Below, one piece after another: positions 1 through 51,172 of a DNA stretch of 64,000 bases. Source of the stretch: a bacterium (GTDB taxonomy: Bacteria; Ratteibacteria; UBA8468; B48-G9; DSTR01); the NCBI GenBank assembly GCA_029551285.1, contig JAKPFT010000081.1:18620-82619 (forward strand), in the 5' to 3' direction. The translations under genes were made by a program, and so were the position numbers. Each line of letters starts with the position of its first letter. Position 1 is the first letter of the stretch. The notes beneath the pieces were generated by a model. That model had not been told where the DNA came from. It saw nothing but the letters and a program-made list of their open reading frames with translations, and did not search any database.

Positions 1-22
1 TCTGCCTTCACCTGTTAAACCC

Positions 23-1345: not shown

Positions 1346-1417
1346 AAACGGATTTTCCCCCTGTGTTCTCTTCTCAAAATGTGCCTTTTTTTATAAATAA
1401 GTAAGACATATACAAAA

Positions 1418-1450
1418 TGTCAATCGCTAGATAATTGACGCTGGTCAATT
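1418..1450. promoter_or_regulatory. operator-like inverted/direct repeat gtcaat-N9-attgac-N4-gtcaat
   Basis: TGTCAATcgctagataATTGACgctgGTCAATT lies in the AT-rich intergenic region upstream of tilS. Confidence 0.2.
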
Positions 1451-1708
1451 TCCGGATGTGACCGTCCAGACTGATTATCATGTACCATTTTCCCTCTGCA
1501 TGCAGTGACCGGCGGTAGTAGCACTATTGTGCTGAGGAAGTCGTGCTTAAGAGTCGCTGAATACCCGCCAGTTATGACATTTCTTGCTTCCCCGGAGTGA
1601 AATTATTTCTGCTATTCTTGGTGGTCAGAAAGAGCGTATTTTCAATTCTTAATTGGCATTCTGAGAAAGCGTTTGACTTTTAAGGTCTTGTTCCGCTATT
1701 TTATATAC

Positions 1709-36070: not shown

Positions 36071-36092
36071 CTTTCTGAAAAGGAAACCTCTC

Positions 36093-36446
36093 TCAGAGAT
36101 ATCCCTTTAACTTTTCCTCCAGCATCCTTTCCGGCAGCGCTCCCACCATCTGGTCAATTTTCTGGCCGTTTTTGAAGACTACCAGTGTGGGAATGGAAAG
36201 AATACCAAAATCGTTAGCCAGGCTGTTTTCCTCGTCCACATTCACTTTTCCGAATACCACGGTTCCAGCCAGCTTCTTAGCCAGAGATTCAATCACCGGA
36301 GCCAGCATCCGGCACGGACCACACCAGGGCGCCCAGAAGTCCACCACCAATAAAGGATACTTTTTCACAGCTTCCGGAAAATTTTCTCCGGTCAGGTGCA
36401 GGGGATAATCCGGACTTTCTTCAGAATTTACTTTTTTCTCTTCCAT
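36093..36446 (-). CDS. trxA: thioredoxin
   Basis: WAPWCGPCR active site. Thioredoxin fold length plus a short N-terminal extension. Confidence 0.85.
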   Translation of the reverse strand: MEEKKVNSEESPDYPLHLTGENFPEAVKKYPLLVVDFWAPWCGPCRMLAPVIESLAKKLAGTVVFGKVNVDEENSLANDFGILSIPTLVVFKNGQKIDQMVGALPERMLEEKLKGYL

Positions 36447-36467
36447 CTTCCTCCCTGTCTGTTTTTT

Positions 36468-38093
36468 CTAAAAGTACATGTTCTTCGCCATGAGGTAGTC
36501 AAAATCTGCCTCCAGTTCATTCGTCCGGACATGTTCTACCCGAGCAGCGATTTCCTCAGCCGTTTGCCGGCACTCCTGACAGAGTAACATCTCCCGGGCA
36601 CCCTCCAGAGCGCCGTTACCAATCTTGACCACAAGTTGTTCCGGTACCTGCGGAATAAGACCGATGGCCATGGCGTTGGCCGTGTTGATAAAGTTACCAA
36701 AACCTCCGGAGAGATAAACATGCTTCAGGTCTTCTACCGCGGCCGGATAGTAGTGGAGAAGTATCTCCACCCCGGTTTTCATGGCCGACTTGGAGGTAAC
36801 CAGTTGAAAAATGTCCTGCTGGGTAATTTTCAGTTCTCCGTTGAGATAAAAATCATTTTCAATCCTGGCCTGCCGGTTCATCAAGCCGTGCTTTAACATC
36901 TCCGCCAGCAAATCAATCAGACCTGACCCGCAGACTCCCACCGGGTACTTGCTGCCGATGGTGCTGTAAACAACCTTGCCGTTAAGGAGCCGTATTTCCT
37001 TAATCGCTCCCTCAATGGCACCGGTGCCACAACTGACGCTGTTGCCTTCAAAGGCGCCGCCAGCCGCACAGGAAGCCGCCACCAGCCGGTCTCTGTTACC
37101 CAGGACCAGTTCTCCGTTGGTCCCGATATCAATCATCAGCGATAATTCTTCGCTCCGGTACATTTCCGAAGCCAGAATGTCTGCCAGAATATCCGCTCCG
37201 ACATGGCCCCCGATTAAGGCCGCACCGTAAATGGCTCCCTTCGGATTTACGGCCAGTCCCACCTCCGCCGGGGCTACCGTAATGGCTTCCGGGTGGACTG
37301 GCTCAAAAGGTTTCGTGCCTAAAGAAGAAACATCCAGCCCGAGAAAAATGTTGCGCATGGTGGAATTACCCACCACCACCGTATCATAAATGTACCTTTC
37401 CAGCGGTTGACCGGCCTCTGCCGACAGTTCCCGCAGACCGCTGTTGATACCTTCCACCACCACCTTCTGCAGCTGTTTCAGCCGGTGTTCTCGTTTTTCT
37501 AAGGGCAGGTACCGGTGCGTCTCCCGGTCAATCAGGGTGTATTCAATGCGAGAAATCACATCGTTACCGTAAGAAATCTGTGGGTTGGTTCTGGCCATGG
37601 TCGCCAGGATATTTCCGGTTTCCAGGTCAACCAGGTCAAACACCAGCGTCGTGGTGCCAATGTCCACGGCCAGGCCGTAAATTTTTCCGAAATAATCATC
37701 AACCTTTTTCCCCTGGTAGAAAACCTGCTGCCCACTTCTGGTGACAGCCGGAGCCATGGGTATTTTCCGTTCCAGTCCATACTTGAGAATTTCGTAGGTG
37801 CCGAACTCCTTGATGAAAACCACGATATCCGAATCATCCTTAATCACTCTGGCCTGGCAGGCTAACCGCTCCTTATCGTTCAGAGCAAACTTCTTTTCCG
37901 CTGCGGTCAGCTCGTTGAGGTTGTCCTCGCCTTTTTCTACCCGGACCACACATTTGCCGCAGACACCATGGCCGCCGCATTCAGCGTGAATTTCCAGCCC
38001 GTTATCTCTGATATAGTCAAGAATGGACAAACCCGGATGCACGCTGAACCCGGACTTGCCTTTCTTAAACTGCGGGAAAAAGATGTGTCCCAT
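36468..38093 (-). CDS. RACo-like ASKHA ATPase with N-terminal 2Fe-2S ferredoxin domain (corrinoid reductive-activase family, DUF4445)
   Basis: N-terminal plant-type ferredoxin Cys motif (CGGHGVCGKCVV...C). C-terminal actin/hexokinase-like ATPase body (DIGTTTLVFDLVD, IDIGTNGELVL). Confidence 0.7.
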   Translation of the reverse strand: MGHIFFPQFKKGKSGFSVHPGLSILDYIRDNGLEIHAECGGHGVCGKCVVRVEKGEDNLNELTAAEKKFALNDKERLACQARVIKDDSDIVVFIKEFGTYEILKYGLERKIPMAPAVTRSGQQVFYQGKKVDDYFGKIYGLAVDIGTTTLVFDLVDLETGNILATMARTNPQISYGNDVISRIEYTLIDRETHRYLPLEKREHRLKQLQKVVVEGINSGLRELSAEAGQPLERYIYDTVVVGNSTMRNIFLGLDVSSLGTKPFEPVHPEAITVAPAEVGLAVNPKGAIYGAALIGGHVGADILADILASEMYRSEELSLMIDIGTNGELVLGNRDRLVAASCAAGGAFEGNSVSCGTGAIEGAIKEIRLLNGKVVYSTIGSKYPVGVCGSGLIDLLAEMLKHGLMNRQARIENDFYLNGELKITQQDIFQLVTSKSAMKTGVEILLHYYPAAVEDLKHVYLSGGFGNFINTANAMAIGLIPQVPEQLVVKIGNGALEGAREMLLCQECRQTAEEIAARVEHVRTNELEADFDYLMAKNMYF

Positions 38094-38146
38094 ACTGTTC
38101 TCCTCAGAGTTCTTATTATAGGTTGTGGGCCGCCACCTGACAAACC

Positions 38147-38485
38147 TTAATGGTCACAGATATTTTCTCCGGTGACCAGGGTGCCGTTAAGGTAAGCCAT
38201 TACCAGAGCCTCCGGCACTTCTTCCGGCGCGCCGGTAATCACCTTCAGGCCGCACTCATCAAAAAAAGCACGCGCTCGCTGGCCCAGACCGCCGACAAGA
38301 ACTACCTGCACACCCTGTTTCTTCAACCACCGCGGAAAAAGACCCGGCGCATGCTCCGGCGCTTCCAGTACTTCCTGGCCGGTAATCTTCTTTTCCTCTT
38401 CGTCTACCTCAAAAATCGCAAACTGCTCGCAGTGTCCAAAATGCGCACTCAACCTTCCCCTGACCACAGGTATAGCCACCTTCAT
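38147..38485 (-). CDS. NifX/NifB-C-terminal-like (dinitrogenase FeMo-cofactor biosynthesis domain) protein
   Basis: MKVAIPV...FGHCEQFAIFEVDEE...VQVVLVGGLGQRA is the family pattern. 112 aa. Confidence 0.7.
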   Translation of the reverse strand: MKVAIPVVRGRLSAHFGHCEQFAIFEVDEEEKKITGQEVLEAPEHAPGLFPRWLKKQGVQVVLVGGLGQRARAFFDECGLKVITGAPEEVPEALVMAYLNGTLVTGENICDH

Positions 38486-38531
38486 CGCTCCCCCTTCTCC
38501 CGGATAGGAACTTCTCTCCTTTTTTCTGTTC

Positions 38532-38837
38532 TTATGGTTTCAACTTCTTAATTTCTTCTTCCACTTCTCTGGCTCCCCGGGCATAAAACTTTTCTTCATC
38601 AGGCGCCAGTTCCCGAAGAAGCCGCAGGAACTCGCCGGCGTGAACCCGTTCTTCGTCAGCGATGTCCTTAAGTACTTCCTGAGTTAGTTTATCATCGGTT
38701 GACTCGGCCAGTTGCAGATAAAGTTGAATTGCCTCGTACTCCGCAGCGACCATAAACCGAATTGCCCGCACCAGTTCTGCCTGGCTTAGTTTCCTTTCCG
38801 CCTTCAGCCCGGAAAAGGCTCTTCCGAAATCAGGCAT
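38532..38837 (-). CDS. ferritin-like/rubrerythrin-like diiron-carboxylate small protein
   Basis: ExxE...EERVHAGEF pairs (AAEYEAIQLY; ADEERVHAGEF) fit ferritin-like metal ligands. 101 aa. Confidence 0.45.
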   Translation of the reverse strand: MPDFGRAFSGLKAERKLSQAELVRAIRFMVAAEYEAIQLYLQLAESTDDKLTQEVLKDIADEERVHAGEFLRLLRELAPDEEKFYARGAREVEEEIKKLKP

Positions 38838-38870
38838 GTTCCCTCCTTATTCTGGACTGCCGGTTCCCGG

Positions 38871-39236
38871 TTACTTCTGCCCGAAATGACCGGGAACATT
38901 GGGACCGGAAGAATTTGAAAACTCTCCGGCTTTGAACTGTTCCACGGCCTGTCGCACCGTTCCCCTCACTCCAGTCACCACCTTGATGCCAGCCGCCTGT
39001 AATGTGCGAAAGGCATTTGGGCCGCAGTTACCTGTGAGCACATACTTGACTTCCTGCCCGGAGACCAGTTGAGCCGCCTGAATACCAGCACCTCCACCAA
39101 GCTCTGCACTGGTATTTTCTACGGCTTCATAGTCCAGAGAATCTGTATCCACAATCAAAAACCATCTGCAGCGGCCAAACCGCTGGTCCACCTGCTCGTC
39201 AAGACTTTTCCCGGTTGCCGTCACGGCAATTTTCAT
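38871..39236 (-). CDS. NifX/NifB-C-terminal-like protein (second copy)
   Basis: MKIAVTATGKSLD..VDQRFGRCRWFLIVDTD...KYVLTGNCGPNA. 121 aa. Confidence 0.7.
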   Translation of the reverse strand: MKIAVTATGKSLDEQVDQRFGRCRWFLIVDTDSLDYEAVENTSAELGGGAGIQAAQLVSGQEVKYVLTGNCGPNAFRTLQAAGIKVVTGVRGTVRQAVEQFKAGEFSNSSGPNVPGHFGQK

Positions 39237-41070
39237 GCTCCCTCCTTTCCTCTAAGAGATGGTTCAGTTTCGCCCAAATTTCCCTGATTGCCCGGGCCGC
39301 GGCGCCGTCACCGTATTCCACCACAATCCGACCGGCCTGAAGCGCCTGGTTAACTTCTAAATCAAAAGGAATGCTGCCCAGCACCGGAGAGTTCATCTGA
39401 CCAGCCAGAGTTTTAATTTCTTCCAACTGCCTCCTGTTGAGGTCCGCCTTGTTAATAACCACCAGAGCAGGTACCCGAAAATGTTTGGTCAGCTCCAGTA
39501 TCCGTTTAAGGTCATGAATACCTGAAACCGTGGGCTCTGTCACCACCAGGACCAGGTCTGCGCCAGAAACCGAGGCAATTACCGGACAGCCAGTACCCGG
39601 TGGACCATCCCCGAGAATGCGTCCCAGAGACAGTTCCTCAGCCAGCCGGGCGGCCCGGTGGCGCACCTGAGTAACCAGACGACCAGAGTTTTCCTGAGCG
39701 ATTCCAAGCCGCGCATGAACCATCAACCCGTGAGCTGTGTCGGAAACAAACCAGTTTCCACTGACCTCTTCCTCCAGACTGATGGCACCTACCGGACACA
39801 CCAGAGAGCACAGACCACATCCTTCACAGAAAGAGGCCTTCACCCGATAGGTTTTAGCCACGACCTCATTGGCGGGTCCATCCAGACCAATGGCGCCAAA
39901 GTGACACTGCTGCGCGCAACGACCGCAACCAGCACATTTTGCCGCGTCAATTATCGCCTTCCTGCTTCCCGAAAAAGGATGTCTTTCCAGAACCTCCGGT
40001 TGCAGGAGAAGATGAAGATCAGGAGCGTCAACATCGTTATCGGCCAGGACGGTTTCGCGGGAAAGGGCTGATAAAGAGGCCACCAGAGTTGTTTTGCCGG
40101 TACCGCCTTTACCGCTGATTACTGAAATTTCGCGATAGCCTTTTGCCTTTCCCGGCACAAAGGAAAACTTTTTCCTTTTCTTAGATGGTAATTCCTCAAT
40201 CCGGGGCATCTCAGGGAGCTTTCTTTTCCGCAGGAGCTTGATTTCCTCAAAAATTTTCAGCAAATCTGCTGCAAGTTCCTTATGATGTTCAATCAAAATC
40301 TTACCCCGGGCATAGGTCTCGGCATATTCCCTCCGGAAAGGTATCCGGCCAATAATGGGCATGCCTGTTTCTTCGGAATACCTGGTGATCAACCTATCCT
40401 GGCCATCGGATCTATTGACTACAATGCCGGTGGAAACTCCCAGGCTCACCGTCATGGCGGCTGCCAGACTCAGGTCGTTGAGTCCAAACGGCGTCGGTTC
40501 CGTTACCAGCACCGCAACATCAGCATGCTGAACGGCTCTGACCACCGGACAGGCAGTTCCCGGTGAAGCATCAAGAATATTGATTGCCCCGGCCATAATC
40601 TGCTTCTTGACCGCTTCCACGACGATGGGCGCCAGGGTCTCCCCAATATTCAACAGCCCATCGGCGAAGAAAAACGGCTTGTGGTCTGCAGCCACCCTGA
40701 CCCTGCCAATGACCACCTTTTCTTCGTGCAGGGCCTTCTGGGCACACACGCAGGAACAGACACCGCAGGCGTGGCAGAGTTCGTTGAAAATGAGCAGTTT
40801 TTTCTTGACGACGGCGATGGCGTTGTAGTGACAGGCCCGGGCACATTGGCCGCAGGCAATACACCGCCGCTGGTCCCAACGAGGCTTCAAGACGGCAACA
40901 GGTTTTTCCTCAGTGTAACGCGGTTTTACAAAGAGATGGCCGTTGGGCTCCTCCACATCACAGTCCAGAAGGCGGACCGAATGGTTCTTTCTAACCAGGG
41001 CATACGCCAGGTTGACGGCAAACGTTGTCTTACCGGTGCCACCTTTACCGCTGGCCACAGCAATGGTCAT
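39199..41070 (-). CDS. tandem MinD/ParA-type P-loop ATPase fused to 4Fe-4S ferredoxin domains (duplicated module)
   Basis: Two deviant Walker A boxes (VASGKGGTGKTT; ISGKGGTGKTT). Each is followed by a CxxCxxC...C ferredoxin-like cluster (CIACGQCARAC, CHACGVCSCVC; CAGCGRCAQQC, CEGCGLCSLVC). Start chosen at MTIAVAS; the ORF runs to 41127. Confidence 0.75.
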   Translation of the reverse strand: MTIAVASGKGGTGKTTFAVNLAYALVRKNHSVRLLDCDVEEPNGHLFVKPRYTEEKPVAVLKPRWDQRRCIACGQCARACHYNAIAVVKKKLLIFNELCHACGVCSCVCAQKALHEEKVVIGRVRVAADHKPFFFADGLLNIGETLAPIVVEAVKKQIMAGAINILDASPGTACPVVRAVQHADVAVLVTEPTPFGLNDLSLAAAMTVSLGVSTGIVVNRSDGQDRLITRYSEETGMPIIGRIPFRREYAETYARGKILIEHHKELAADLLKIFEEIKLLRKRKLPEMPRIEELPSKKRKKFSFVPGKAKGYREISVISGKGGTGKTTLVASLSALSRETVLADNDVDAPDLHLLLQPEVLERHPFSGSRKAIIDAAKCAGCGRCAQQCHFGAIGLDGPANEVVAKTYRVKASFCEGCGLCSLVCPVGAISLEEEVSGNWFVSDTAHGLMVHARLGIAQENSGRLVTQVRHRAARLAEELSLGRILGDGPPGTGCPVIASVSGADLVLVVTEPTVSGIHDLKRILELTKHFRVPALVVINKADLNRRQLEEIKTLAGQMNSPVLGSIPFDLEVNQALQAGRIVVEYGDGAAARAIREIWAKLNHLLEERREHENCRDGNREKS

Positions 41071-41249
41071 GCTTATTTCCTCCACGGGCAGCCGGCAACC
41101 GGTTTCTCCGTCATCTGCGGGAAACAACTGAATGGATACCTCACCTTCGCCACTTATGTGGCCACAGTTTCCTCTCTTTCTAACAGAGCCGTTGCCTGCT
41201 GGTCTAACCTTTTCTTCCGTGACTTATTTTCTCTCTGTTGATGCGCTCT

Positions 41250-41453
41250 TCACCGTTCTCTGACCATAGGCGTCCCACAACCGGGGCACTTGACCGAATA
41301 ACACGGAACACCGCGTTGATGGGGAATCTTCCGACCGCAATTGGGACAGACACAGTTACCACCTGGTCCGGCTCCAAAGCCACCCATCCGGCCAGGGCCT
41401 CGCCCCATTCCTGGCCCTCTTCCTGAAGGTCCGGTACCATCTCCTCTGGGCAT
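41250..41453 (-). CDS. DUF5320 family small protein
   Basis: MPRGDGTGPSGRGPGMGRGPG N-terminus and C-terminal CPNCG...CPGCG zinc-ribbon-like pairs. 67 aa. Confidence 0.6.
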   Translation of the reverse strand: MPRGDGTGPSGRGPGMGRGPGRMGGFGAGPGGNCVCPNCGRKIPHQRGVPCYSVKCPGCGTPMVRER

Positions 41454-41470
41454 TCTCGCCTCCTTGTTGT

Positions 41471-42160
41471 TTATGTTCTGTGAATTTCAGTTCCTTCCTT
41501 CACCAGCAGCAGCGGGAAGATAACATCACTGGTGCAGCAGGGAATGACCACCGCCAGAACCATATAAACCAGCACTGCGCCAATCTGGTGTGCCCAATCC
41601 CGCAGTCCGTAGCTTATCAGATAAAGAATGGAGGCCACCGAACTGGTTAAGACATGCAGTGAGTGAGAGAAAATCACACCTTCCTGTTTCTCCAGCGTCC
41701 CCGGTGCCAAAAATCCAATCAAAATCCCGACCACGAGAAAAGGAAGCACAATCTGCGGGTGTTCAACGATGCAGATGTGCAGTTGCATCCTGGCTCCCAG
41801 AAGGACACCGGCCAGGTAAGGAATGAAGATGTCGCTGAGGCCGCAGATACCAATTGAACCCACGATGCCGACGATGACAGCCTTCCAGAAGCGCCGCTCA
41901 TACTGCCAGAACATCGCAGTGGTTGCCATGGCTGAAAAAAGCATGTGCGACGGGTGAAAAACATGGAAAAGATCCCTGGTAAATGGGGCAGGGTCCTGCA
42001 CCTGGACCAGATTGGCGAAGAAACTCAGAACTGCCGCAAACATAAGACCGAGGGTGACACTCAAGACCGAAAACGGCAGGTGGTGGCTCAGTCCCTTCCA
42101 GAGCAGGTTTATCTTTTTCTCCATGGTCTCCTCCCTTTCCTCCTGGCCTGGTTTCTCCAT
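41471..42160 (-). CDS. His-rich integral membrane protein (possible metal transporter or metal-dependent membrane hydrolase)
   Basis: About 6 TM helices. Histidine clusters HVFHPSH, HICIVEH, SHSLHVL. The neighbouring genes are metal-related. Confidence 0.35.
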   Translation of the reverse strand: MEKPGQEEREETMEKKINLLWKGLSHHLPFSVLSVTLGLMFAAVLSFFANLVQVQDPAPFTRDLFHVFHPSHMLFSAMATTAMFWQYERRFWKAVIVGIVGSIGICGLSDIFIPYLAGVLLGARMQLHICIVEHPQIVLPFLVVGILIGFLAPGTLEKQEGVIFSHSLHVLTSSVASILYLISYGLRDWAHQIGAVLVYMVLAVVIPCCTSDVIFPLLLVKEGTEIHRT

Positions 42161-42169
42161 TTTCTCCTT

Positions 42170-42886
42170 TCAGTAAAGATAGGGGTCAGCCGGCCGGGGC
42201 ACAACCTGTACTTCGTCAGCCACAATGCAGGAGTTTCCTCCGGTACAGGACACTGTTCCGCGTACCAGAACCCAGGTGTTATCCTTCAGTTGAGAGGCAT
42301 TCTCCGATTCCACCCTGATACCAAGCGGTGTAGCGTCGGCCGCGCAGCAGGTAATTAGAAAACGAACCAGCATAAAGGCCCCTGGTGGGTCGCCGGGTTT
42401 CCGGTAAACCAGGCCTTCGGTTGCCACCAGCAATCCCCCGGCTTTTTCCGGACTTGCGCTGGCCAGAGAAACCAGTTGCTTCAGATTCATTTTCTTATAC
42501 CGGCCCTCAGTTTCCGCCCTGGCTATAAGCGCCTCCAGCAAAGAATTATCCGCTGCGGCAAGCGAGGTGCTGATTCCCCTGCTGGCAACCGCCATAATCG
42601 GCAGCGTCCCTGGCCGCACCACTATCGCCAGCACTACCGGAAACAGGAAAAGGAAAAAAGAGCGCAGCGATATTGCCACCGGCCCTGACTCCTGGCTGTC
42701 TGAGCCACCGCACCGGAGAGCCATAACCGCCAGCAGAACCAGCGACATAAGAGCCACTGGTGCGTAACTCTTGCGGATGAAGACAGAAAGTTTACCGCTG
42801 GCCAGGAGCACCAGGATAAAGCTAAACCATGTCAGTAAGACCGCTAAGACATAAACCCGCTGTGTGTCAAACCTTTTCACCGCCAT
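42170..42886 (-). CDS. DUF1980/TIGR03943 family protein (partner of DUF318 permease)
   Basis: C-terminal CCAADATPLGIRV motif. N-terminal TM helices. Start chosen at MAVKRFD, 7 nt after the permease stop. Confidence 0.55.
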   Translation of the reverse strand: MAVKRFDTQRVYVLAVLLTWFSFILVLLASGKLSVFIRKSYAPVALMSLVLLAVMALRCGGSDSQESGPVAISLRSFFLFLFPVVLAIVVRPGTLPIMAVASRGISTSLAAADNSLLEALIARAETEGRYKKMNLKQLVSLASASPEKAGGLLVATEGLVYRKPGDPPGAFMLVRFLITCCAADATPLGIRVESENASQLKDNTWVLVRGTVSCTGGNSCIVADEVQVVPRPADPYLY

Positions 42887-43899
42887 CTCCCGGCCAGTGC
42901 GGCCAAAGATGTCAGCACAAAAACACCAGTAACAGCCAGGACAATCAACCGGCTGGCAAATCCTTTTTTGAAACCACCCCAGTACAAAATAATTAAGGAC
43001 ACGCTGGTCGTCGGCCCGGCCAGAAGAAAGGTTATTTTGGCGGCAGCCGGCAACCCGGTGAACGTACTGGCTACAAAAGCATCGGCAAAGGAACACAGGG
43101 AGAAGGCCATCCCCAGAAACTGCAGAAGGACGATGGAGGCCAGCGGATTGGTTGCCAGCGCGTTAACAGCCGAACGGGGAAGCAGTGTTTGAAACAGAGC
43201 CGCAATGCTGGCTCCCAGGATAAGATAGCGACCGGTCAGGAAAAAATCATGCTCCGCATGGTCAACGATGTGTGCCCATCGCGTGCCGGCAGAAACTGTT
43301 GCCTGATGGCAATGATGCTCGCCGGCGCTCTCCCTTGAAATATCCGCAACCTCCCAGGCACCAAGAAAAAGACCCGCCAGGACCGCGAGGCAAAAAGCCA
43401 GGCTCATCCGGCCAAAAAGGACGCTTCTCTCTGCCGGAAAAGCCATGGCTGTAGAAAAAAGGGTTACCGGGTTGATGATGGGTGCCGCCAGCAGGTAAGC
43501 GACTACTCCGGCCACTGGAACCCCTTTATGGAGAAGCCTTCTGGCCACCGGAATATTGCCACAGGAACAGACCGGAAAGATAAGTCCCAGTAAAGACCCA
43601 ACAGCCGCCGCCGGTAACTTCTGCCTGGGAAAAACGCGCTCCTCAAGAAAGGCTGGCGGCACCAGAACTTCAAGGGCTCCGGAAACAAAGGAACCGGCCA
43701 GAAGAAAAGGGAAACCCTCCAGCAGAATCGCCAGAAGCATGATGGTGAACAACTGAACCTTAGGATGGCCGAGAGGCCGGGTAATCTGGCCTAACTCACC
43801 GGCCATCCACTTGTTAACCAGGACCAGAACCGCTATGACGGCTACGGTAATCCACAATTTTGTCCTGTAACTGCCAGCAGCTGCCGGCGTCGGCTCCAT
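42877..43899 (-). CDS. DUF318 (ArsP/YraQ-like) permease
   Basis: Multi-TM with conserved Cys motifs FPVCSCGNIPV and LCSFADAFV. Confidence 0.7.
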   Translation of the reverse strand: MEPTPAAAGSYRTKLWITVAVIAVLVLVNKWMAGELGQITRPLGHPKVQLFTIMLLAILLEGFPFLLAGSFVSGALEVLVPPAFLEERVFPRQKLPAAAVGSLLGLIFPVCSCGNIPVARRLLHKGVPVAGVVAYLLAAPIINPVTLFSTAMAFPAERSVLFGRMSLAFCLAVLAGLFLGAWEVADISRESAGEHHCHQATVSAGTRWAHIVDHAEHDFFLTGRYLILGASIAALFQTLLPRSAVNALATNPLASIVLLQFLGMAFSLCSFADAFVASTFTGLPAAAKITFLLAGPTTSVSLIILYWGGFKKGFASRLIVLAVTGVFVLTSLAALAGRWR

Positions 43900-43920
43900 T
43901 ATTCTTCCCCGGTTATTCTT

Positions 43921-44646
43921 TCAAAAGGTGACAATGTCTCCAACCCGCACTTTCCGGAATTGGCTACCGAAGATTGTGGCGAAAATTCTCTCTGCGGCTG
44001 GACCTGAACAGTGCGTGGGACCAACAGCCTTCACCCCCAGATGTTTTACTTCTTCCGCGACCTCACGAATCACAGTATCGGTTTCTTCTAACAGGTGAAA
44101 TCCGCCCATAACCAGATTGATGGCGTTTTCCGGCTCTTCCGGCGGAAAATGTTCCTGCACGACCTTCAGGATTTTGAGAAGCCCGGGGTGAGCACAGCCG
44201 GTAACAACCGCCATCCCTTTTTCTGTCTTGATCACCAGCGCCTGCTCGGTCAGAAAACCTGGCCCGTACCGGACAGTAATTTCTCCGGTGGTGTAAACTG
44301 AAGGGACGATTTCCTGAAACGGCTGCACCCTTACAAAGTGGGCCCCTGACAGTTTCACCTGCTCTTTGAACCTAACAGAAAAAGCCGCACCGCCAAAAAC
44401 TTTTATTCCCTTTCCTGCCTCCAGCACCTTTGCCAGGCCACCGGTATGGTCCCAGTGCTCGTGGGAAATCACCACCGAGTGGAAACTGGCCGGGTCAATC
44501 CTCAGACGTTTCAGATTAGCCAGCAGCCAGTCACCATTTTCGCCGGTGTCAAAAAGAAGGTGGTCACCGACCAAAACAGAAAGTCCCCAGCCTGTCCGGA
44601 GTTTCTCTTCTCTTGCCCGGCTATCAAAAATAATCCTGAGTGTCAT
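43921..44646 (-). CDS. MBL-fold metallo-hydrolase
   Basis: HEHWDHTGG zinc-binding motif. Start chosen at MTLRIIFD; the ORF runs to 44748. Confidence 0.7.
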   Translation of the reverse strand: MTLRIIFDSRAREEKLRTGWGLSVLVGDHLLFDTGENGDWLLANLKRLRIDPASFHSVVISHEHWDHTGGLAKVLEAGKGIKVFGGAAFSVRFKEQVKLSGAHFVRVQPFQEIVPSVYTTGEITVRYGPGFLTEQALVIKTEKGMAVVTGCAHPGLLKILKVVQEHFPPEEPENAINLVMGGFHLLEETDTVIREVAEEVKHLGVKAVGPTHCSGPAAERIFATIFGSQFRKVRVGDIVTF

Positions 44647-44710
44647 TCTTGAACCTGCGGCTGAGAAAGGCAGCCCCAGTCTGCAGCCTGAGACTGCCCA
44701 ACCCAGACCG

Positions 44711-45100
44711 TCAGCCCTCCTGCTGTTTTTTCTTAGAGATGACTGCATCCAGGTCAGCCAGCCGCTGCTGGATTTCCTTCATCTCCTGTTCCATGGCTGA
44801 GAGCTGCTGCCTGAGAAAGGCTGCTTCGGCGTCCGGAGTGAGCTCAGCCCCGGGGACGAAACCCGGGTAGCGGCCATACCAGTAGCCACCCCAGGCAGGC
44901 AGTCCGACCCGGGCCCGATACCAGCCGGGAAGCCCGGTCGCGTAGTACCAGTGTCGCCAGCCGCGTCCGCCCCAGCGAGGCCAGAAACGGCCGTAAGTGC
45001 CCCATCCGGGATAACCGGTGAGCGGAAGAGCACAAAAACCGCGACCTCCTCCAGTCATCGGCCCCAGACCCAGCGGTCCAGTTCCATCAAATCCTGGCAT
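44711..45100 (-). CDS. DUF5320-like protein with W/Y/G/R-rich low-complexity region and C-terminal coiled coil
   Basis: N-terminus MPGFDGTGPLGLGPMTGGGRG matches 41250..41453. Middle region GYPGWGTYGRFWPRWGGRGWRHWYYATGLPGWYRARVGLPAWGGYWYGRYPG. C-terminus EAAFLRQQLSAMEQEMKEIQQRLADL. Confidence 0.5.
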   Translation of the reverse strand: MPGFDGTGPLGLGPMTGGGRGFCALPLTGYPGWGTYGRFWPRWGGRGWRHWYYATGLPGWYRARVGLPAWGGYWYGRYPGFVPGAELTPDAEAAFLRQQLSAMEQEMKEIQQRLADLDAVISKKKQQEG

Positions 45101-45106
45101 ACTGTT

Positions 45107-45598
45107 TCACCTCCTTTCTGCTTGTTTCTCAGCATTTTTACACTGCTGGCACTTTCCGTAAAACTGAATTAGATGGTCGGTAATCTCAAAATTGTACTTT
45201 TCGCTCAGGCCTTTCTGGGTCGTTTGAAGAAGTTCTTTTTCCTTCTCCAGAAAATCGCTGTAATCTATCACCCGGCCGCACAAAGTGCAGATGAGGTGAT
45301 GATGGTGGCTCTTACCCCCGGAGTGGGCTGCCAGTTCAAAGCGGGCCCGACCATCCCCGAAGTCAAACTTGACCACAATCCCCATTCGCACCAGCAGGTC
45401 TAATGTCCGGTAAACCGTGGTTAACCCGATCTGCGGGTAACGGGCGTGGACCAGAAAGTAAATGTCCTCAGCGCTTAAATGCTCAGGTGTCTGCGTAAGA
45501 ACCTGCAGCACCGCTTCCCGCGGCAGGGTGTAACGGTAGCCGCACCCGTGGAGCCTCTCATACAACCAGGGCGGTCCGGCCATCCAGCGTCTGGGCAT
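45107..45598 (-). CDS. zur: Fur-family transcriptional regulator, probably Zur
   Basis: Winged helix plus HHHxxxC..C and C..C metal sites (SHHHHLICTLCG; CQQC). It lies immediately upstream of znuBCA on the same strand. Confidence 0.8.
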   Translation of the reverse strand: MPRRWMAGPPWLYERLHGCGYRYTLPREAVLQVLTQTPEHLSAEDIYFLVHARYPQIGLTTVYRTLDLLVRMGIVVKFDFGDGRARFELAAHSGGKSHHHHLICTLCGRVIDYSDFLEKEKELLQTTQKGLSEKYNFEITDHLIQFYGKCQQCKNAEKQAERR

Positions 45599-45668
45599 TT
45601 TTTCTCCTTATTGAAAATAGTTTCCATTTTCATTATACCCGGCCAGGTGGCCCCTGTCAAGAGATCGG

Positions 45669-46457
45669 TCAACGCCGTCCGGCGAGCACCGCCAGCAAGG
45701 CGGCCAGACTGTAAAGGGCAACAATAGTCGGACCGGCAGGCAGGTCAAACCTCCAGGAGACAGCCAGGCCAGCGCTGACACAGAAAACCGCCACCAGCAC
45801 CGCTATTAGAGTACTCAGGTGAATCCGCCGCGTCGCCCACAGCCCGGCCATGGGCGGAATTACCAGGGAAGCAAAAACAAAGAGAAGACCGCAACTTCTC
45901 ATCGCCAGGCCAATCAACGCACCCAGAGAAAGATAGAAAATCAGGTCCCAGAAACCGGCCGGCAATCCGAGGCTTAAAGCAAAGTCACGGTCAAAGGTAA
46001 CCGCCACGAACTCCTTCCGGAAGACAATCTGGGAACCCACCACTGCCAGGCTCACCAAACTCAATACCAGCAACTCCGGCGTGCTGATATAAAGGATGTT
46101 ACCTGAAACCAGGTCCAGACCGCGGGCTTCCGCCAGGGGGTTTTTGGCCACCAGCAAAACGGAAGCGGCGGCACACAGAGCATAAATAAACCCCACCGCG
46201 GCTTCTCCGAAACCACGTTGCTGGTGCCAGAGCTGCCAGAAGATTAAGGTAACCACCGTTGTCAGCAGAAAGGCCATCAGAAAACTGGTCTGGCCGAAGA
46301 AAAAACCGATGGCGACCCCTAATGCCGCCACCTCAGAAAGTGCTACCGACAGGAAGACAATCCTTCTCCAGATGACAAAGATGCCCAGATAGGCGCAGGC
46401 TGCGGCGATAATGCTGCCCGCGGTAAGAGCCCTCTGCATGAATGCTTCGCCAAACAT
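45669..46457 (-). CDS. znuB: zinc/manganese ABC transporter permease (ABC-3 family)
   Basis: 8 TM helices in the ABC-3 pattern. Operon with znuC and znuA. Confidence 0.8.
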   Translation of the reverse strand: MFGEAFMQRALTAGSIIAAACAYLGIFVIWRRIVFLSVALSEVAALGVAIGFFFGQTSFLMAFLLTTVVTLIFWQLWHQQRGFGEAAVGFIYALCAAASVLLVAKNPLAEARGLDLVSGNILYISTPELLVLSLVSLAVVGSQIVFRKEFVAVTFDRDFALSLGLPAGFWDLIFYLSLGALIGLAMRSCGLLFVFASLVIPPMAGLWATRRIHLSTLIAVLVAVFCVSAGLAVSWRFDLPAGPTIVALYSLAALLAVLAGRR

Positions 46458-46469
46458 CCTTCCTCCGGT

Positions 46470-47204
46470 TCAGTAAACCAGGATTCCGTTTTTACCGTTT
46501 TTTAGAAATATCTCTGTTTCCAGAACCTGCGAAAGCAAGGCAGCATTCAGCTGGTCTTTGCTGACCACCCGCAGGCCACCGGTCCTCTGAAGAAAAAGAA
46601 AATACTCGGCTTCGTTGATGACTTTAGGCAATTCGTGACTGACCAGGACCACAGTTAAACCCAACTGCTTTCTGGTCTCGGCCACCAGTTGCAGAATTTC
46701 GCGGGAACCCTTCAGGTCCAGGTCGGTGGTGGGTTCGTCCAGCAGTAGCACCTGCGGCTCTGTAGCCAGAGCCCGGGCTAAGAGCACCCGCTGTTTCTGG
46801 CCACCGGAAAGTTCAGAGAAGAGTTTTTCCGAAAGGTGACCCACACCGCACAGCCGGAGACATTTTTCCACGACCGCCCGGTCCTCATGCCGGAAAGGCC
46901 GGCCGAGCCCGGCTAACCTGGTTCTGGCCATAAGAGCAATCTCCCTCACGGTGCAGGGGAATAACTCCTCCACGGCCTTCCTTTGCTGGCAATATCCGAA
47001 AGCCAGCCGGCTATCCCGGTAAAGGTGACCCTTCAGGGGCGGCAGAATTCCCAGGATGGCTTTTAAGATGGTGGTCTTGCCGGAACCGTTAGGTCCGATA
47101 AAACCCCAGTATTGACCCGGATAGATTTTTAAGGAAAGCCCTTTTACCACCGGCTGGCTTCCGTAACCAAGGGCGACATTCTCAAAAACGATAATCGGGT
47201 TCAT
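46470..47204 (-). CDS. znuC: zinc/manganese ABC transporter ATP-binding protein
   Basis: Walker A GPNGSGKTT. LSGGQKQRVLLARAL. LLLDEPTTDLD. Confidence 0.85.
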   Translation of the reverse strand: MNPIIVFENVALGYGSQPVVKGLSLKIYPGQYWGFIGPNGSGKTTILKAILGILPPLKGHLYRDSRLAFGYCQQRKAVEELFPCTVREIALMARTRLAGLGRPFRHEDRAVVEKCLRLCGVGHLSEKLFSELSGGQKQRVLLARALATEPQVLLLDEPTTDLDLKGSREILQLVAETRKQLGLTVVLVSHELPKVINEAEYFLFLQRTGGLRVVSKDQLNAALLSQVLETEIFLKNGKNGILVY

Positions 47205-48115
47205 AATTGTTGTTCTCCGGTGATTAAAGAAACGATTGTTTCCAGAAGGCTGAAGTAATCCCTAACTTCGGGAGTACCTCCCACGGAATTGGGAAAGACA
47301 ACCACCCTGGCCCCGGTCTCCCGGGCCACAAAATCAGCCGCTTTTCTGTTATAAAAGACCTCCTGCAGGATTAGACCAACCTTTTCCTTTTTCATCAACT
47401 CCACGACCCGGGAAAGATGCGCCGGTCCAGGAGGAATACCAGGTTTTGGCTCCAGTTCCGCCACAATTTTCAGGGGAAATCTCCGGCAGAAGTAAGAAAG
47501 ACTGCGGTGGTAACTGACCGCTTTCACTTCGCCCAGTTTTTCCATCTTTTTCTGGCACCAGGCTATCAGCTCATCAATCCTGCGCTCAAATTTCTTCAGA
47601 TTGGCCTGGAAAAAATCACTGTCAGCTGGGCAAATAATACTGAGCCGTTCTGCAATCTGTCTGGCTATTAAGCGGCCATTTTCCGGGTCAAGCCAGTAGT
47701 GGGGATTACCCAGCGGGTGGACATCTCCCATAGAAGCATCAACCCTGGCACCAGAAGGCAGCACCTCTAATTTTTTTATCGGTCCGGAAAGGTCAAGAAA
47801 ACCAGTTTTACCCGTGTTCACCTTTGGATTCCGGGCCGCGTCAATCAGCGAGTAAACCCAGATGTCCAGGTCCAGCCCCACGGCCAGAACCAGGTCTGCC
47901 TTCCTGATTTTCACCACCATAGAGGGTCTGGGCTCCACAAAATGAGGGTCCTGCACCCCGGTAATCAGGGAAACTACCTCCACCCTGTCCCCGCCTATCT
48001 CCCTGGCGATTGAGGCCATGTCAGAAGTGGTGGTGACAACATTTATTTTCTCAGCCGAGGCTAAACCCACACACAGAGCCAGTACCGTCACCAGTAAAGT
48101 TATCCGCTTCATCAT
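47201..48115 (-). CDS. znuA: metal ABC transporter substrate-binding protein (ZnuA/TroA family)
   Basis: Signal peptide, then the TroA-like fold (VVTTTSDMASIAREIGGDRVEV...HPLGNPHYWLDP). Confidence 0.8.
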   Translation of the reverse strand: MMKRITLLVTVLALCVGLASAEKINVVTTTSDMASIAREIGGDRVEVVSLITGVQDPHFVEPRPSMVVKIRKADLVLAVGLDLDIWVYSLIDAARNPKVNTGKTGFLDLSGPIKKLEVLPSGARVDASMGDVHPLGNPHYWLDPENGRLIARQIAERLSIICPADSDFFQANLKKFERRIDELIAWCQKKMEKLGEVKAVSYHRSLSYFCRRFPLKIVAELEPKPGIPPGPAHLSRVVELMKKEKVGLILQEVFYNRKAADFVARETGARVVVFPNSVGGTPEVRDYFSLLETIVSLITGEQQL

Positions 48116-48181
48116 CCCTCCTTATCTGACTATTGTTTCTGTCAATGGTTTTGCAACTCCTTATCGCCTTTCCTCCTCCAC

Positions 48182-48434
48182 TGTCAGAAAAGGAAGGGAA
48201 TAACTGGCGAACGAATTGCGAAGGCACAGTTACAAGACAAGACGAAAAGCGGATGCGCTCGGTAAGCGGACCGGACAATTCCATCCGGGACGCAATACCT
48301 TACTCGGCGGTGTTTGAGCTCGCCCCCGGGCGAGCGAGTTCGCCGAGCAACCGATTTCGGCGTAGTCCTTGTCTGTGCCGGAGCATTCTGAGTGAGCCAG
48401 TTTGTTCCCTTTCTTTTCATTCCTCTTTTATTCC
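48182..48434. repeat. copy 1 of tandemly duplicated ~253-nt structured element (candidate ncRNA/riboswitch-like leader)
   Basis: Copy 1 is near-identical to copy 2 at both ends. The middle diverges, but the local hairpins are preserved (ccgga-N8-tccgg; gctcgcc-ccc-ggcgagc). Confidence 0.6.
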
Positions 48435-48481
48435 TTCTTTGGTTCTGCCTGTCCTTATCTCTCTCCCTATCCTTCCCAGTG

Positions 48482-48734
48482 TGTCAAAAAAGGAAGGGAA
48501 TAACTGGCGAACGATTTGCGAAGGCACAGTTACAAGACAAGATGAAAAGCGGATGCGTTCGGTAAGCGGCCCGGATAAGTCTAACCGGGACGCAATACCT
48601 TACTCGGCGGTGTCTGAATTCGCCACCTGGCGAATGAGTTCGACGAGCGACCGATTTCGGCGTAGTCCTTGTCTGTGCCGGAGCACCTTGAGTGAGCCAG
48701 TTTGTTCCCTTTCTTTTCATTCCTCTTTTATTCC
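48482..48734. repeat. copy 2 of tandemly duplicated ~253-nt structured element
   Basis: Period is 300 nt. Hairpins cccgg-N10-ccggg and attcgcc-acct-ggcgaat occupy the same positions as the copy-1 hairpins but use different stem sequence, i.e. compensatory changes. Confidence 0.6.
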
Positions 48735-49607
48735 TTTTTTGACACTATCCTTTTCTGTTATTGCTCCTAATCCCCGGCAAACCTCAAGGAGCGCTTCCTT
48801 CAGATATCCGTATTTTCCGCCGAACACGGCCTTACACTGTTCTATGGAAGATGCTCCTTCGTAAACCTTGCAGGCAAAAGCCGTGCAGGTTGGCTCTCCG
48901 CAGGCCCGGCAGTTGGTCCGGGGAAGACGTTTCAAAATCTCCAGGGCCGGCGGCCTCTGGCGCAAGGCGTCCGAAGGTTGAATGGTTGCCCGCTGCTGCC
49001 AGACGCGATTTACCTGGTAGCGAATCATCTCCAGAACCCGCCAGGCATCTACAATCTCATCAGCCCTGGCGACGGTAATCCGTCGCGGAGAGAGAGAAAT
49101 CATCCGGTAGCCGTCCATAAATGTCAGCACCGGAGCGCTTTTTATGTAGGACGCCGTTTCCATAACCGCGTTCAGATAAGGAAAAACCTCAGCCATATCT
49201 CCGGTAATGTGGGCGATGAGCCGGATCCGGGTCTCATCGGCCACGCACGGCGCCAGCACCATGATTGCTGCCCGGCCAAAAACATCTTCAGAGAAAATTG
49301 GCGGTTCCTCGTCAGGGACAGGTCTCTCAGTGGGACGATATTCTACCCATCCGGAACAGGTGAGGTCTCTTTTTTCTCCAAGAAAATCCCGGCCTTCATC
49401 GTCAACAACTAAGGCTGGCGCCCCTACCAGCCGATACTTAGGTTCTGGCCGGATCACTTCCGCGGCCAGAGCCGCCTGTTCTAAACCCTTCAGCGCCATT
49501 TCAAAGGCCTGTGAATCGGGAAAGGTTGTCAGCCACCGTGTCATAACTGTTTTCCTCAACCCGGCTGTTTTTCCCCGCCGGGAAAGAAAAAACACTCTGC
49601 CAGGCAT
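48717..49607 (-). CDS. protein with C-terminal Fe-S cluster domain (PF04060-like C-x2-C-G-x2-T-C-x4-C...C)
   Basis: CRACGEPTCTAFACKVYEGASSIEQC lies at the C-terminus. N-terminal region of unknown function. The start may be at MTRWL (49544). Confidence 0.5.
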   Translation of the reverse strand: MPGRVFFLSRRGKTAGLRKTVMTRWLTTFPDSQAFEMALKGLEQAALAAEVIRPEPKYRLVGAPALVVDDEGRDFLGEKRDLTCSGWVEYRPTERPVPDEEPPIFSEDVFGRAAIMVLAPCVADETRIRLIAHITGDMAEVFPYLNAVMETASYIKSAPVLTFMDGYRMISLSPRRITVARADEIVDAWRVLEMIRYQVNRVWQQRATIQPSDALRQRPPALEILKRLPRTNCRACGEPTCTAFACKVYEGASSIEQCKAVFGGKYGYLKEALLEVCRGLGAITEKDSVKKGIKEE

Positions 49608-50795
49608 TCATTTCACCAGCCACCCGAAGACAAGACCGGTGACCGTAGCCATGACAACCACCAGCGTCACATAAACAACCGTTTTCTTCGTGCCCATGAT
49701 ACTTCTGAGGACCAGCATGCTGGGCAAACTCAATGCCGGCCCAGCCAGAAGAAGGGCCAGGGCCGGGCCGTTGCCCATTCCGGAACCGAGCAAACCCTGA
49801 AGAATGGGAACTTCGGTCAATGTAGCAAAGTACATGAAGGCGCCCACAATGGAAGCGAAAAAATTGGCTCTCAGAGAATTCCCGCCGACCAGAAACATTA
49901 CCAGCCTTGAGGCAATAAGCCCCTCGTGTCCCGGCCGGCCCAGAAGTATCCCGGCCACAAAGACACCGGCAAAGAGCAAAGGGAAAATCTGTTTGGCAAA
50001 ACCCCAGGCGCTGCGTACCCATTCGGCCAGTTCCTCTTTCCGGAACCAGGCCTTGAGGACCAGGAGAAGTAATACGAGAAAACCGGCGGTGAGCATCCAC
50101 TTGATGCGAAAAATAAATAGCCAAAGGCCGGAACTGTTACCCTTTGGCGAGGCCCAGTTGGCAAAGACAAGAATCCCGACCAGAGCGGCAAACTGAAGCC
50201 CTGTCTGCCACAGGGGGTGCTTCTCCTGTTCGCCGGCCAGCACCAGGTCTCCCTCATTTTCTCTGGAAGTTTCTTCCTTCAGAAAAAGCAAATGCATCAG
50301 CAGACCGACCACCACGCTGAAGACGACCGCGCCCAGCGCCCGGGCCAGCCCCAGTCTCCAGCCCAAAATGCGCGCGGTCATGATGATCGCCAGCACATTA
50401 ATAGCCGGGCCAGAGTACAGAAACGCGGTGGCTGGACCCAGGCCGGCTCCCCGACGGTAAATTCCGGCAAAAAGTGGCAGCACCGTGCAGGAACAGACTG
50501 CCAGGATGGTCCCGGAAACTGAAGCGACACCATAGGCCAGAATTTTGTTAGCCTTCCGGCCAAAGTATTTCAGAACAGAAGCCTGGCTGACAAAAACGGC
50601 GATGGCGCCGGCAATAAAAAAAGCCGGCACCAGACAGAGAAGAACATGCTCCCGGGCGTACCACTGGAGAAGCAGCACGGCTTCGGTCAGAGGATTGGAT
50701 ACTGAGAAGCGGAAAGGAAGGAAATAAAAGAAGAGGAAGACCGCCACCATCAACAGAAACTTCGCTCGTTCGGTTCTGTACCAGGCCATGTTCAC
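49608..50795 (-). CDS. ArsP-like DUF318 permease (second copy, longer)
   Basis: AVCSCTVLPLFAGI motif (compare FPVCSCGNIPV at 42877..43899). About 10 TM helices. Located directly downstream of arsR. Confidence 0.65.
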   Translation of the reverse strand: MNMAWYRTERAKFLLMVAVFLFFYFLPFRFSVSNPLTEAVLLLQWYAREHVLLCLVPAFFIAGAIAVFVSQASVLKYFGRKANKILAYGVASVSGTILAVCSCTVLPLFAGIYRRGAGLGPATAFLYSGPAINVLAIIMTARILGWRLGLARALGAVVFSVVVGLLMHLLFLKEETSRENEGDLVLAGEQEKHPLWQTGLQFAALVGILVFANWASPKGNSSGLWLFIFRIKWMLTAGFLVLLLLVLKAWFRKEELAEWVRSAWGFAKQIFPLLFAGVFVAGILLGRPGHEGLIASRLVMFLVGGNSLRANFFASIVGAFMYFATLTEVPILQGLLGSGMGNGPALALLLAGPALSLPSMLVLRSIMGTKKTVVYVTLVVVMATVTGLVFGWLVK

Positions 50796-51172
50796 CTCTG
50801 ACAGAGTTTTTTCCGGTCAGCCAGCTTAGCTTTTTTTTCATCCTGCCTCAGTCTGGCATCAACCATGGTTAGAGCGGTTACTGTTTTTAGAAGAGGATTA
50901 AGCCAGTGGTTCTTCGGATAGAAACAGAGACGATAATCGGTCCATACCCCGTTGGTCTGGTCTTCAATCAACCCGGCTTGTTTCAGCGCCTGCAAATGGC
51001 GGGAGACCGTTGGCTGAGCAATACCCAGCACAAAGCGCAACTCACAGACACACATCGGCCTGGCCGCCAGCAACTTCAGAATCCGAATGCGGTTGCGGTT
51101 AGCCAGTGCCTTGAACACCCGTTCTGCTTCTCCCAGAGAAACCGCTCCGGGCCTGGATAGCGATATAGCCAT
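50792..51172 (-). CDS. ArsR/SmtB family metalloregulator
   Basis: HTH with metal-binding CVCEL motif (LAARPMCVCELRFVLGIAQPTVSRHLQAL). Confidence 0.8.
   Translation of the reverse strand: MAISLSRPGAVSLGEAERVFKALANRNRIRILKLLAARPMCVCELRFVLGIAQPTVSRHLQALKQAGLIEDQTNGVWTDYRLCFYPKNHWLNPLLKTVTALTMVDARLRQDEKKAKLADRKKLCQR

Follow-up and report, generated by a model that had tools for sequence, protein, structure and literature searches.

According to published descriptions, the ORP cluster is specific to anaerobes; what it does has been unclear since 2011. In DvH, its operons are orp5-orp4-orp3 and orp7-orp8-orp9. Orp3 and Orp4 are MinD-like ATPases containing two 4Fe-4S motifs, Orp5 has homology to a small protein that binds [2Fe-2S], the NifX-like Orp8 carries a Mo-Cu-S cluster non-covalently, and in Orp9 (MrpORP) an Mrp domain is fused to a NifX-like one (PMC6345978; PMC8359166). 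In D. alaskensis G20, the genes for a small Cys protein (Dde_3197), a NifX-like protein (Dde_3198) and the uncharacterised Dde_3199 were co-regulated with feoA and flavodoxin (PMC10533852). A further NifX-like protein, IssA of Pyrococcus furiosus (PF2025), has an unstructured tail of 70 residues that contains 7 cationic residues, 14 aromatic residues, 15 Gly, 11 Pro and the only Cys of the protein; this tail was proposed to wrap anionic thioferrate, and its conserved features are Trp, Gly and Arg (PMC5524996). The cationic tail of IssA was "not found in Orp9" (PMC6345978). Here, two small open reading frames (ORFs) were investigated in a stretch of 64,000 nucleotides from a bacterium of the Ratteibacteria (contig JAKPFT010000081.1 of assembly GCA_029551285.1; hereafter the window), and their locus was compared with these systems.

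We found that these two ORFs, one of 129 amino acids (aa; 44711..45100; hereafter the long protein) and one of 67 aa (41250..41453; the short protein), both on the minus strand, are ordinary parts of a gene cluster that is found in hundreds of anaerobes and seemingly handles iron-sulfur material. Our preferred reading, which we consider to be roughly 45% probable, is that they are accessory proteins of a widespread ORP/IssA-type cluster of anaerobes for the handling of metal sulfides, working in the manner proposed below.

The gene order around related proteins was collected in two independent samples comprising 114 loci in total (cited below by their L numbers). For the first sample, one genome per species was scanned with the short family, and the best 80 loci were labelled with profiles of the window's proteins; for the second, metagenomes were searched with the long family as seed, and 34 loci with a length of 6 kb or more were used. 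The short family occurred in at least 586 species, including Dehalococcoidia, Deltaproteobacteria, Omnitrophota, Spirochaetes, Bacillota, Thermotogae and archaea. Among the 80 genome loci, we found NifX-like genes (68/80), MinD/ferredoxin ATPases (66/80), DUF5320-type genes (57/80), an MBL-fold hydrolase (22/80) and fur (13/80), nearly all of them on one strand and in the order [fur] - DUF5320 (1-3 copies) - NifX-like - short - ATPase - ATPase - [NifX-like]. The metagenome loci contained ATPases (30/34), NifX-like genes (at least 27/34), the short family (22/34), fur (13/34), the MBL hydrolase (8/34) and an EncFtn-like gene (3/34). A fur gene lay directly upstream of DUF5320 in 13 of the 34 and 13 of the 80 loci. 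Matching neighbours were present in L001 and L004, an annotated contig read NikR/CbiMNQO - FUR - DUF5320 - 2x Nitro_FeMo-Co - Fer4 ... CbiA/Fer4, and in Caldicoprobacter the order was ParA - DUF5320 - Nitro_FeMo-Co. Up to four tandem DUF5320-type genes were observed per cluster.

The original prediction had described the two ORFs as bracketing a metal-transport block. The neighbourhood is indeed metal-related, and the genes between the two copies encode an MBL hydrolase, an ArsP_1/DUF318 permease, a DUF1980 protein and a membrane protein with 11 His. The bracketing, however, is a local arrangement, because in L091, a relative of the window with the order znuABC - methyltransferase - long - short - MBL, no transporter separates the long and short genes; in most loci a NifX-like gene lies between them.

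Both ORFs are real at the coordinates at which they had been predicted. A strong Shine-Dalgarno sequence precedes each of them (AAGGAGG and AAAGGAGG), in-frame homologs numbered 1050 for the long protein and 774 for the short one, and every gene between ~38.1 kb and 48.1 kb lies on the same minus strand. The motif M-P-x-x-D-G-T-G-P occurred only twice in a six-frame scan of the 64-kb window, in both cases at the start of these ORFs. Considering that public gene callers read the short gene in a different frame, it could be argued that one of the ORFs, or both, do not code and have arisen as artefacts from G-rich sequence. The chance of this is negligible, since the in-frame homologs, the invariant Cys/His and Trp/Arg columns, the Shine-Dalgarno sites and the conserved synteny all speak against it, and the artefact reading was ruled out by conservation. 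The 67-aa gene is thus real but mis-called in public annotations: NCBI, JGI and ENA annotate a 78-aa ORF (41204..41440) in another frame of the same strand instead. The exact 67-aa sequence was absent from a collection of 15 billion proteins. Searches of plasmids with both proteins by tblastn gave zero matches, and nothing significant was returned from the PDB by sequence searches with profiles of the long and short families.

The long protein consists of an N-terminal module, a cationic, aromatic and Gly-rich core, and a C-terminal coiled coil. Its predicted membership of DUF5320 was borne out by the Pfam model (PF17253), which matched the full length of the protein (E=4.8e-16) with 60.2 bits at a gathering cut-off of 27 and covered model positions 1-99 of 99. 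The same model reached 17.3 bits (E=0.011) with the short protein, below the 27-bit cut-off, and covered model positions 1-39 only. Of the claim that both copies belong to DUF5320, the half concerning the long protein therefore stands, whereas the short one falls below the threshold. The core (residues 24-83) contains 14 Gly, 8 Trp, 8 Tyr, 7 Pro, 7 Arg and 2 Phe, that is 18 aromatic residues; Asp and Glu are absent, and the net charge is +7. The single Cys of the protein is located N-terminal of these 60 residues.

This stretch rich in Trp, Tyr, Gly and Arg had been regarded as unusual low complexity. In an alignment of 83 homologs, R49, W60 and R62 were invariant, and R42, G45-G47, A54, T55, G56, G59, G66, P68, A69 and G71 were nearly invariant, with the core consensus GRGGGRGxRNWYYATGLPGWxRAxxGxPAFGG. 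Averaged over 115 homologs, the core comprised 26% Gly, 13% Arg and Lys, 21% aromatic residues and 0.5% Asp and Glu, and had a net charge of +7 (range +4 to +9). The sole compositional outlier was the Trp content, which was 13% in the window's copy versus a family mean of 5.7%. Because the columns are conserved across homologs and the Pfam model covers them, the stretch is not drifting low complexity; it is the conserved core of the DUF5320 family and not an oddity. Besides the 1050 in-frame homologs, the family comprises at least 7,125 clusters at 50% identity, and the segment is conserved across thousands of relatives. The predicted C-terminal coiled coil was supported both by an unbroken a/d heptad pattern (L96, L100, M103, M107, I110, L114, L117, I121) and by a confident AlphaFold2 helix (residues 89-128) with a predicted local distance difference test score (pLDDT) of 80-91; residues 1-48 were predicted to be disordered, and the mean pLDDT was 60. 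No new fusion was found among the longer DUF5320 representatives inspected: P0424 and P0466 look like over-extended gene calls, and in P0397 the N-terminal module is duplicated. A core without the N-terminal module, with the W-motif and coiled coil, was also observed (L089, 3929..4183), and it comes after fur and a near-classic Fur box, GATAATGAGAATTATTATC.

Disordered segments rich in Arg, Gly and aromatic residues bind RNA and undergo phase separation in other systems. Given the disorder that AlphaFold2 predicts, the long protein could likewise be an RGG-like protein that binds nucleic acid or phase-separates and has no direct link to metals. We consider this very unlikely, since the gene neighbourhood is consistently related to metals and Fe-S, the tail is fused to NifX-like domains elsewhere (see below), and the operon contains neither an RNA-processing gene nor any RNA element detected by Rfam and tRNA scans. 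Of the roles suggested originally for this segment, self-assembly and metal binding are thus reasonable ideas, while RNA binding is poorly supported.

In the short protein, the N-terminal module is followed by a G/R/M linker and by the pattern CxCxxC...H...C....CxxC. The best full-length members among its 774 homologs were 66-74% identical; C34, C36, C39, H45, C51, C56 and C59 were invariant in the alignment, and exactly six Cys were present in 118 of 120 homologs. AlphaFold2 modelled residues 31-67 with a pLDDT of 85-90, including two CPxCG knuckles. These two CPxCG pairs had been noticed before and are present, but they are only part of a full set of six invariant Cys and His45. The short protein shares the two knuckles with zinc-ribbon and rubredoxin-knuckle mini-proteins and differs from them by two more Cys and one His, which are invariant. 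Pfam zinc-ribbon models gave 17 bits (cut-offs 25-29), a Foldseek search of the PDB with the model returned generic Cys-knuckle folds only (best E 0.37), and RpoP/Rpb12, LysW and desulforedoxin-type folds superposed weakly on the AlphaFold2 model. The earlier designation as a zinc ribbon was not supported, considering the six invariant Cys with His45 and a likely Desulfovibrio counterpart that binds [2Fe-2S].

The N-terminal motif shared by the two ORFs was confirmed when the profiles of the long and short families (83 and 109 sequences) were compared: hhalign aligned them with a probability of 96%, over the first 22 residues only. Because the alignment covers only these N-terminal residues, the two proteins represent two distinct families with a common module of ~22 residues (MPxxDGTGPxGxGPxTGRG), not full-length paralogs in which one tail replaced the other, as had been supposed; moreover, the two families co-occur in most related loci. 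The module precedes at least five types of tail in related clusters: the W-motif with a coiled coil, a G/R/Y/F-rich stretch with a coiled coil, a G/R/W-rich tail ending in RWWW or YPRW, a coiled coil alone, and the Cys6His domain. In some proteins it is present twice. Siblings that have the module and a Trp-rich end (...RRWWW, ...YPRW, ...GWRW) and no coiled coil were observed in L008, L021, L028, L036, L045, L047, L059, L066 and L077.

A gene for a regulator of 163 aa (45107..45598, minus strand; Pfam FUR, E=9.9e-33) adjoins the gene for the long protein and had been called Zur. By its scores, this Fur-family regulator is closer to Fur than to Zur: among the NCBIfam models, Fur scored highest (137.9 bits), ahead of PerR (85.8) and Zur (45; cut-off 167), and with PDB sequences the order was likewise Fur (119 bits), PerR (73) and E. 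coli Zur (30). The regulator has an N-terminal extension (MPRR..GPPW..GCGYR). Fur-family proteins heading clusters (the window, L001, L018, L058, L065, L074) have in common an extension of the form MPRR..MGPPWW..FRGCGYR.T that is absent from classical Fur, and this extension bears a loose likeness to the way in which the DUF5320 proteins begin (MPxxDGTGP).

Directly upstream of the fur-family gene, a sigma-70 promoter was identified on the minus strand (45632..45660; TTGACA at 45660..45655, a spacer of 17 nucleotides, TATAAT at 45637..45632), which is the sole 12/12 consensus match in 36000..48500. A predicted operator resembling a Fur box of the 7-1-7 type, TGGAAAC-T-ATTTTCA (45612..45626, minus strand), follows the -10 hexamer immediately. 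It is the sole exact match to TGRAAAYNRTTTYCA in the window; the sites with one and two mismatches that were inspected (36847, 29509) lie inside coding sequence, and copies sought upstream of znuA and of the ATPase gene were absent. The same 7-1-7 box was found upstream of fur-DUF5320 pairs in L001, L018, L065, L074, L105, L109 and L144, reading, in these mutually unrelated loci, TGGAAACCATTTTCA in L001, L065 and L109, TGAAAACCATTTTCA in L074, TGAAAATCATTTTCA in L144 and TGAAAACCATTATCA in L105, while near-classic Fur boxes occurred in L058 and L089. These boxes matched the Fur consensus at 10-13 of 14 positions and the Zur box at 7-9 of 14, and thus the predicted operator fits the Fur box better than the Zur box, for which a check upstream of 45100 had been suggested. 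Between fur and the second NifX-like gene, no convincing terminator was seen; the strong promoter that comes next (38115..38143, minus strand; near-consensus, 11/12) precedes a gene for a RACo-type activase. Given the promoter and predicted operator upstream of fur, the lack of a convincing terminator and the position of the next promoter, we infer a single Fur-box-controlled operon from 45660 to ~38147, in which fur to the second NifX-like gene would be transcribed from one promoter.

These results also bear on the idea that the two ORFs are a zinc-sparing pair under Zur, with a Zn-ribbon copy (C+) and a Zn-free copy (C-) exchanged under zinc limitation, an exchange that is known for some ribosomal proteins. 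The CPxCG knuckles are indeed confined to one copy, and genes for a ZnuABC-type transporter and a Fur-family protein lie close by. The two proteins, however, have only 22 residues in common, are placed in one operon and co-occur in related loci (57/80 and 22/34); the regulator and the predicted operator are Fur-like, no box lies upstream of znuA, and the short protein has six invariant Cys and a His. This idea is highly improbable, being largely refuted by the 22-residue overlap, the co-occurrence and the Fur-like regulation.

Alongside the observed synteny, family memberships, modular architecture and predicted operator, the following mechanism is proposed. The N-terminal module of ~22 residues would serve both proteins for docking to the same partner, the likeliest being the MinD/ferredoxin ATPases; that one tag heads different tails is best explained by docking to one shared partner. 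The long protein would multimerise via its C-terminal coiled coil, which resembles a leucine zipper, and its disordered, acid-free arms rich in Arg, Trp, Tyr and Gly (+7) would bind or cap an anionic metal sulfide carried by the tail-less NifX-like proteins, the candidate cargo being a thioferrate-like Fe-S polymer or a Mo/Cu-S cluster. It would thus be a free-standing equivalent of the tail of Pyrococcus IssA, and the short protein would be the counterpart of Orp5/Dde_3197, a small Cys-rich binder of [2Fe-2S]. The module of MBL hydrolase, ArsP_1, DUF1980 and His/Cys membrane protein, placed inside the operon, may couple metal transport to this system.

The proposed link between DUF5320 and the IssA tail is supported by NifX-like ORFs that carry both a tail and a DUF5320-like coiled coil. 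The related loci contained 113 NifX-like ORFs, 17 of which had at the C-terminus (GMGR)n and Pro-rich stretches together with a coiled coil; 12 of these 17 matched the coiled-coil part of the DUF5320 profile (E<0.01). Such tailed ORFs were seen in L008, L019, L022, L036, L047, L066, L078 and others, and may be the clade called "IssX" in the IssA paper. Neither NifX-like gene of the window carries a tail, and the long protein is without a NifX-like domain. A bolder and, in our view, doubtful version of the mechanism is that DUF5320-type proteins, NifX-like proteins and MinD/ferredoxin ATPases together constitute a widespread Fur-controlled system by which anaerobic bacteria and archaea build, hold or move iron-sulfur (thioferrate-like) or thiometallate material, in which the arms wrap the mineral, the N-terminal peptide is a docking tag, and the whole is a split bacterial counterpart of IssA. 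If this version is true, a biochemical role would be obtained for the ORP complex.

Several points weigh against our preferred reading. The ATPases and NifX-like proteins co-occur with the two families at equally high frequency, and so synteny cannot single out the direct partner; moreover, the N-terminal module was modelled by AlphaFold2 at low confidence. The likeness to the IssA tail rests on composition, not on alignment, and the conserved core motif GRGWRxWYYATGLPGWxRA suggests a specific interface rather than loose electrostatic wrapping of the IssA type. Control by a Fur-type repressor suggests induction when iron is short, as would suit trafficking or acquisition more than storage. The putative equation of the short protein with Orp5/Dde_3197 and of the long protein with Orp7/Dde_3199 is based on gene order, size and Cys content. 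Finally, a literature search on DUF5320 returned two incidental mentions only and no experiment on any DUF5320 protein.

The main rival is that the long protein is an McdB-like adaptor of MinD/ParA-type ATPases, whose N-terminal peptide contacts or stimulates the ATPase and whose disordered region and coiled coil drive the formation of multimers or condensates and bind cargo, for positioning or cell division instead of the direct binding of metal sulfides. McdB contains a coiled coil besides a disordered region, and an invariant C-terminal Trp and condensate formation are needed for it to function (PMC11321042). Like the long protein, it is small, adjoins an ATPase of the ParA/MinD type and combines conserved N-terminal and disordered regions with a coiled coil. 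ATPases are present in 30 of 34 and 66 of 80 related loci, and sibling subtypes end in ...RRWWW, ...YPRW or ...GWRW. The ORP complex was also putatively assigned to cell division, Orp3 and Orp4 having MinD-like amphipathic helices (PMC6345978). On the other hand, McdB has important Trp residues including that at its C-terminus, whereas the long protein is Trp-rich but terminates in an acidic/polar coiled coil (...KKKQQEG) and not in Trp. There is no sequence homology to McdB, and the composition matches the IssA tail. In addition, the combination of tail and coiled coil is fused to NifX-like domains and not to ATPases, the ATPases here are Fe-S proteins with ferredoxin inserts, unlike nucleoid-binding ParA, and the cargo of McdB is a microcompartment, while the candidate cargo here is a metal sulfide or an Fe-S protein. 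We regard the McdB-like adaptor as unlikely; the synteny cannot separate it from the metal-sulfide mechanism, and both may hold.

The remaining genes of the proposed operon are all on the minus strand and were assigned as follows. The MBL-fold metallo-hydrolase (43921..44646; Pfam Lactamase_B) has 241 aa from ATG 44646, where the JGI call starts too; a longer ORF from 44748 overlaps the DUF5320 gene. The ArsP_1 (DUF318) permease (42877..43899; PF03773, E=6e-48) showed weak NCBIfam matches to the Cu/Zn efflux transporter SO_0444 and to SaoE, and it is accompanied by a putative permease subunit of the DUF1980/TIGR03943 type (42170..42886), which scored 119.7 bits with TIGR03943 (cut-off 88.8) and contains the N- and C-terminal DUF1980 domains of Pfam. 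The third member of this group is a His/Cys-rich membrane protein of 229 aa (41471..42160), with zero Pfam or NCBIfam matches and 532 homologs that are all annotated as hypothetical. Its invariant residues are H27, H66, H69, H72, H128, H134, H166, H169, C106, C130, C208, C209, D110 and D212, and its PCCTSD motif resembles TCCAAD of the adjoining DUF1980 protein. The three genes form a conserved module; in L088 it adjoins znuABC, and in L089 it sits within another fur-headed cluster, inserted between the ATPases.

Downstream of the short gene lies a fused double P-loop ATPase of the MinD/CbiA type (39199..41127; 642 aa), with two CbiA stretches and a 4Fe-4S ferredoxin insert in each half (Fer4 at residues 81-104 and 391-450), so that it resembles Orp3 plus Orp4; it has an alternative start at ATG 41070 and NCBIfam matches of the MrpORP/MinD type. 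It is followed by a single-domain NifX-like protein (38871..39236; Nitro_FeMo-Co, IPR003731; PF02579, E=1.3e-26), by a ferritin-like protein of the EncFtn/EncB type (38532..38837; Pfam Rubrerythrin and EncFtn-like; NCBIfam EncB_fam 89.5 bits, cut-off 90), near which no encapsulin shell gene was seen, and by the second NifX-like protein (38147..38485; PF02579, E=5e-22), which gave 120.6 bits with NCBIfam MrpORP at model positions 265-365. Genes for a RACo-type ASKHA/2Fe-2S activase and thioredoxin are located directly downstream of the cluster (36093..38093, minus strand). On its other side, a metal ABC transporter of the ZnuA/ABC-3 type (45669..48115, minus strand; substrate-binding protein, ATPase and permease, by Pfam via JGI gene calls) had its best NCBIfam matches with AztABC (Zn) and MntABC (Mn), all below cut-offs. 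Just upstream of this znuABC set, 48717..51172 (minus strand) encodes an ArsR regulator, a second ArsP_1 permease (395 aa) and a protein with a putative Fe-S domain (PF04060). The first 2000 positions of the window (1..2000) have a GC content of 0.39, as against ~0.50-0.56 elsewhere in it.

The two proteins belong to known kinds, namely a Pfam DUF family and a cluster of the ORP type. Three features appear to be new: the reading of DUF5320 as a split, IssA-like tail; the 22-residue module that several small proteins of the cluster have in common; and the dedicated Fur-family regulator with a variant Fur box that heads many of the clusters. The first of these offers a concrete, testable role for the large DUF5320 family (>7,000 sequence clusters), which is of unknown function; should it be wrong, what was found is just one more routine member of a family already known but uncharacterised. 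By-products of the analysis are a conserved 67-aa gene that is mis-called publicly and a His/Cys-rich membrane family without annotation.

Compared with the ORP cluster, the locus matches in gene content and order, a small protein preceding two 4Fe-4S MinD-type ATPases and a small protein preceding a NifX-like protein. The short protein, like Orp5/Dde_3197, is small, has 6 Cys and is encoded directly upstream of the double ATPase and NifX-like genes; the order Dde_3199 - Dde_3198 - Dde_3197 of D. alaskensis G20 corresponds to DUF5320 - NifX-like - short. No Desulfovibrio was present among the best 80 loci of the genome scan with the short family. The two systems differ in regulation, which involves sigma-54 and OrpR in the ORP cluster, in contrast to a perfect sigma-70 promoter, a Fur-family gene and a Fur-box-like site here. 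They also differ in that the window has one co-linear operon with fused ATPases, an internal transporter module and the MBL hydrolase, and lacks an Mrp-NifX fusion, although its second NifX-like protein scored 120.6 bits against MrpORP's Di-Nase domain. The long protein has in common with the IssA tail a stretch of ~60-70 residues, unstructured (as predicted for the long protein), with 7 cationic residues, richness in aromatic residues and Gly, the presence of Pro and a single Cys, as well as the association with a NifX-like domain of IPR003731. In IssA this tail is fused to the NifX-like domain, whereas the long protein is encoded by a separate gene and has its own N-terminal module and coiled coil. 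We regard the IssA tail as the closest functional analogue of the core of the long protein, and the data suggest that, within the same cluster, DUF5320 provides the equivalent of this tail from a gene of its own.

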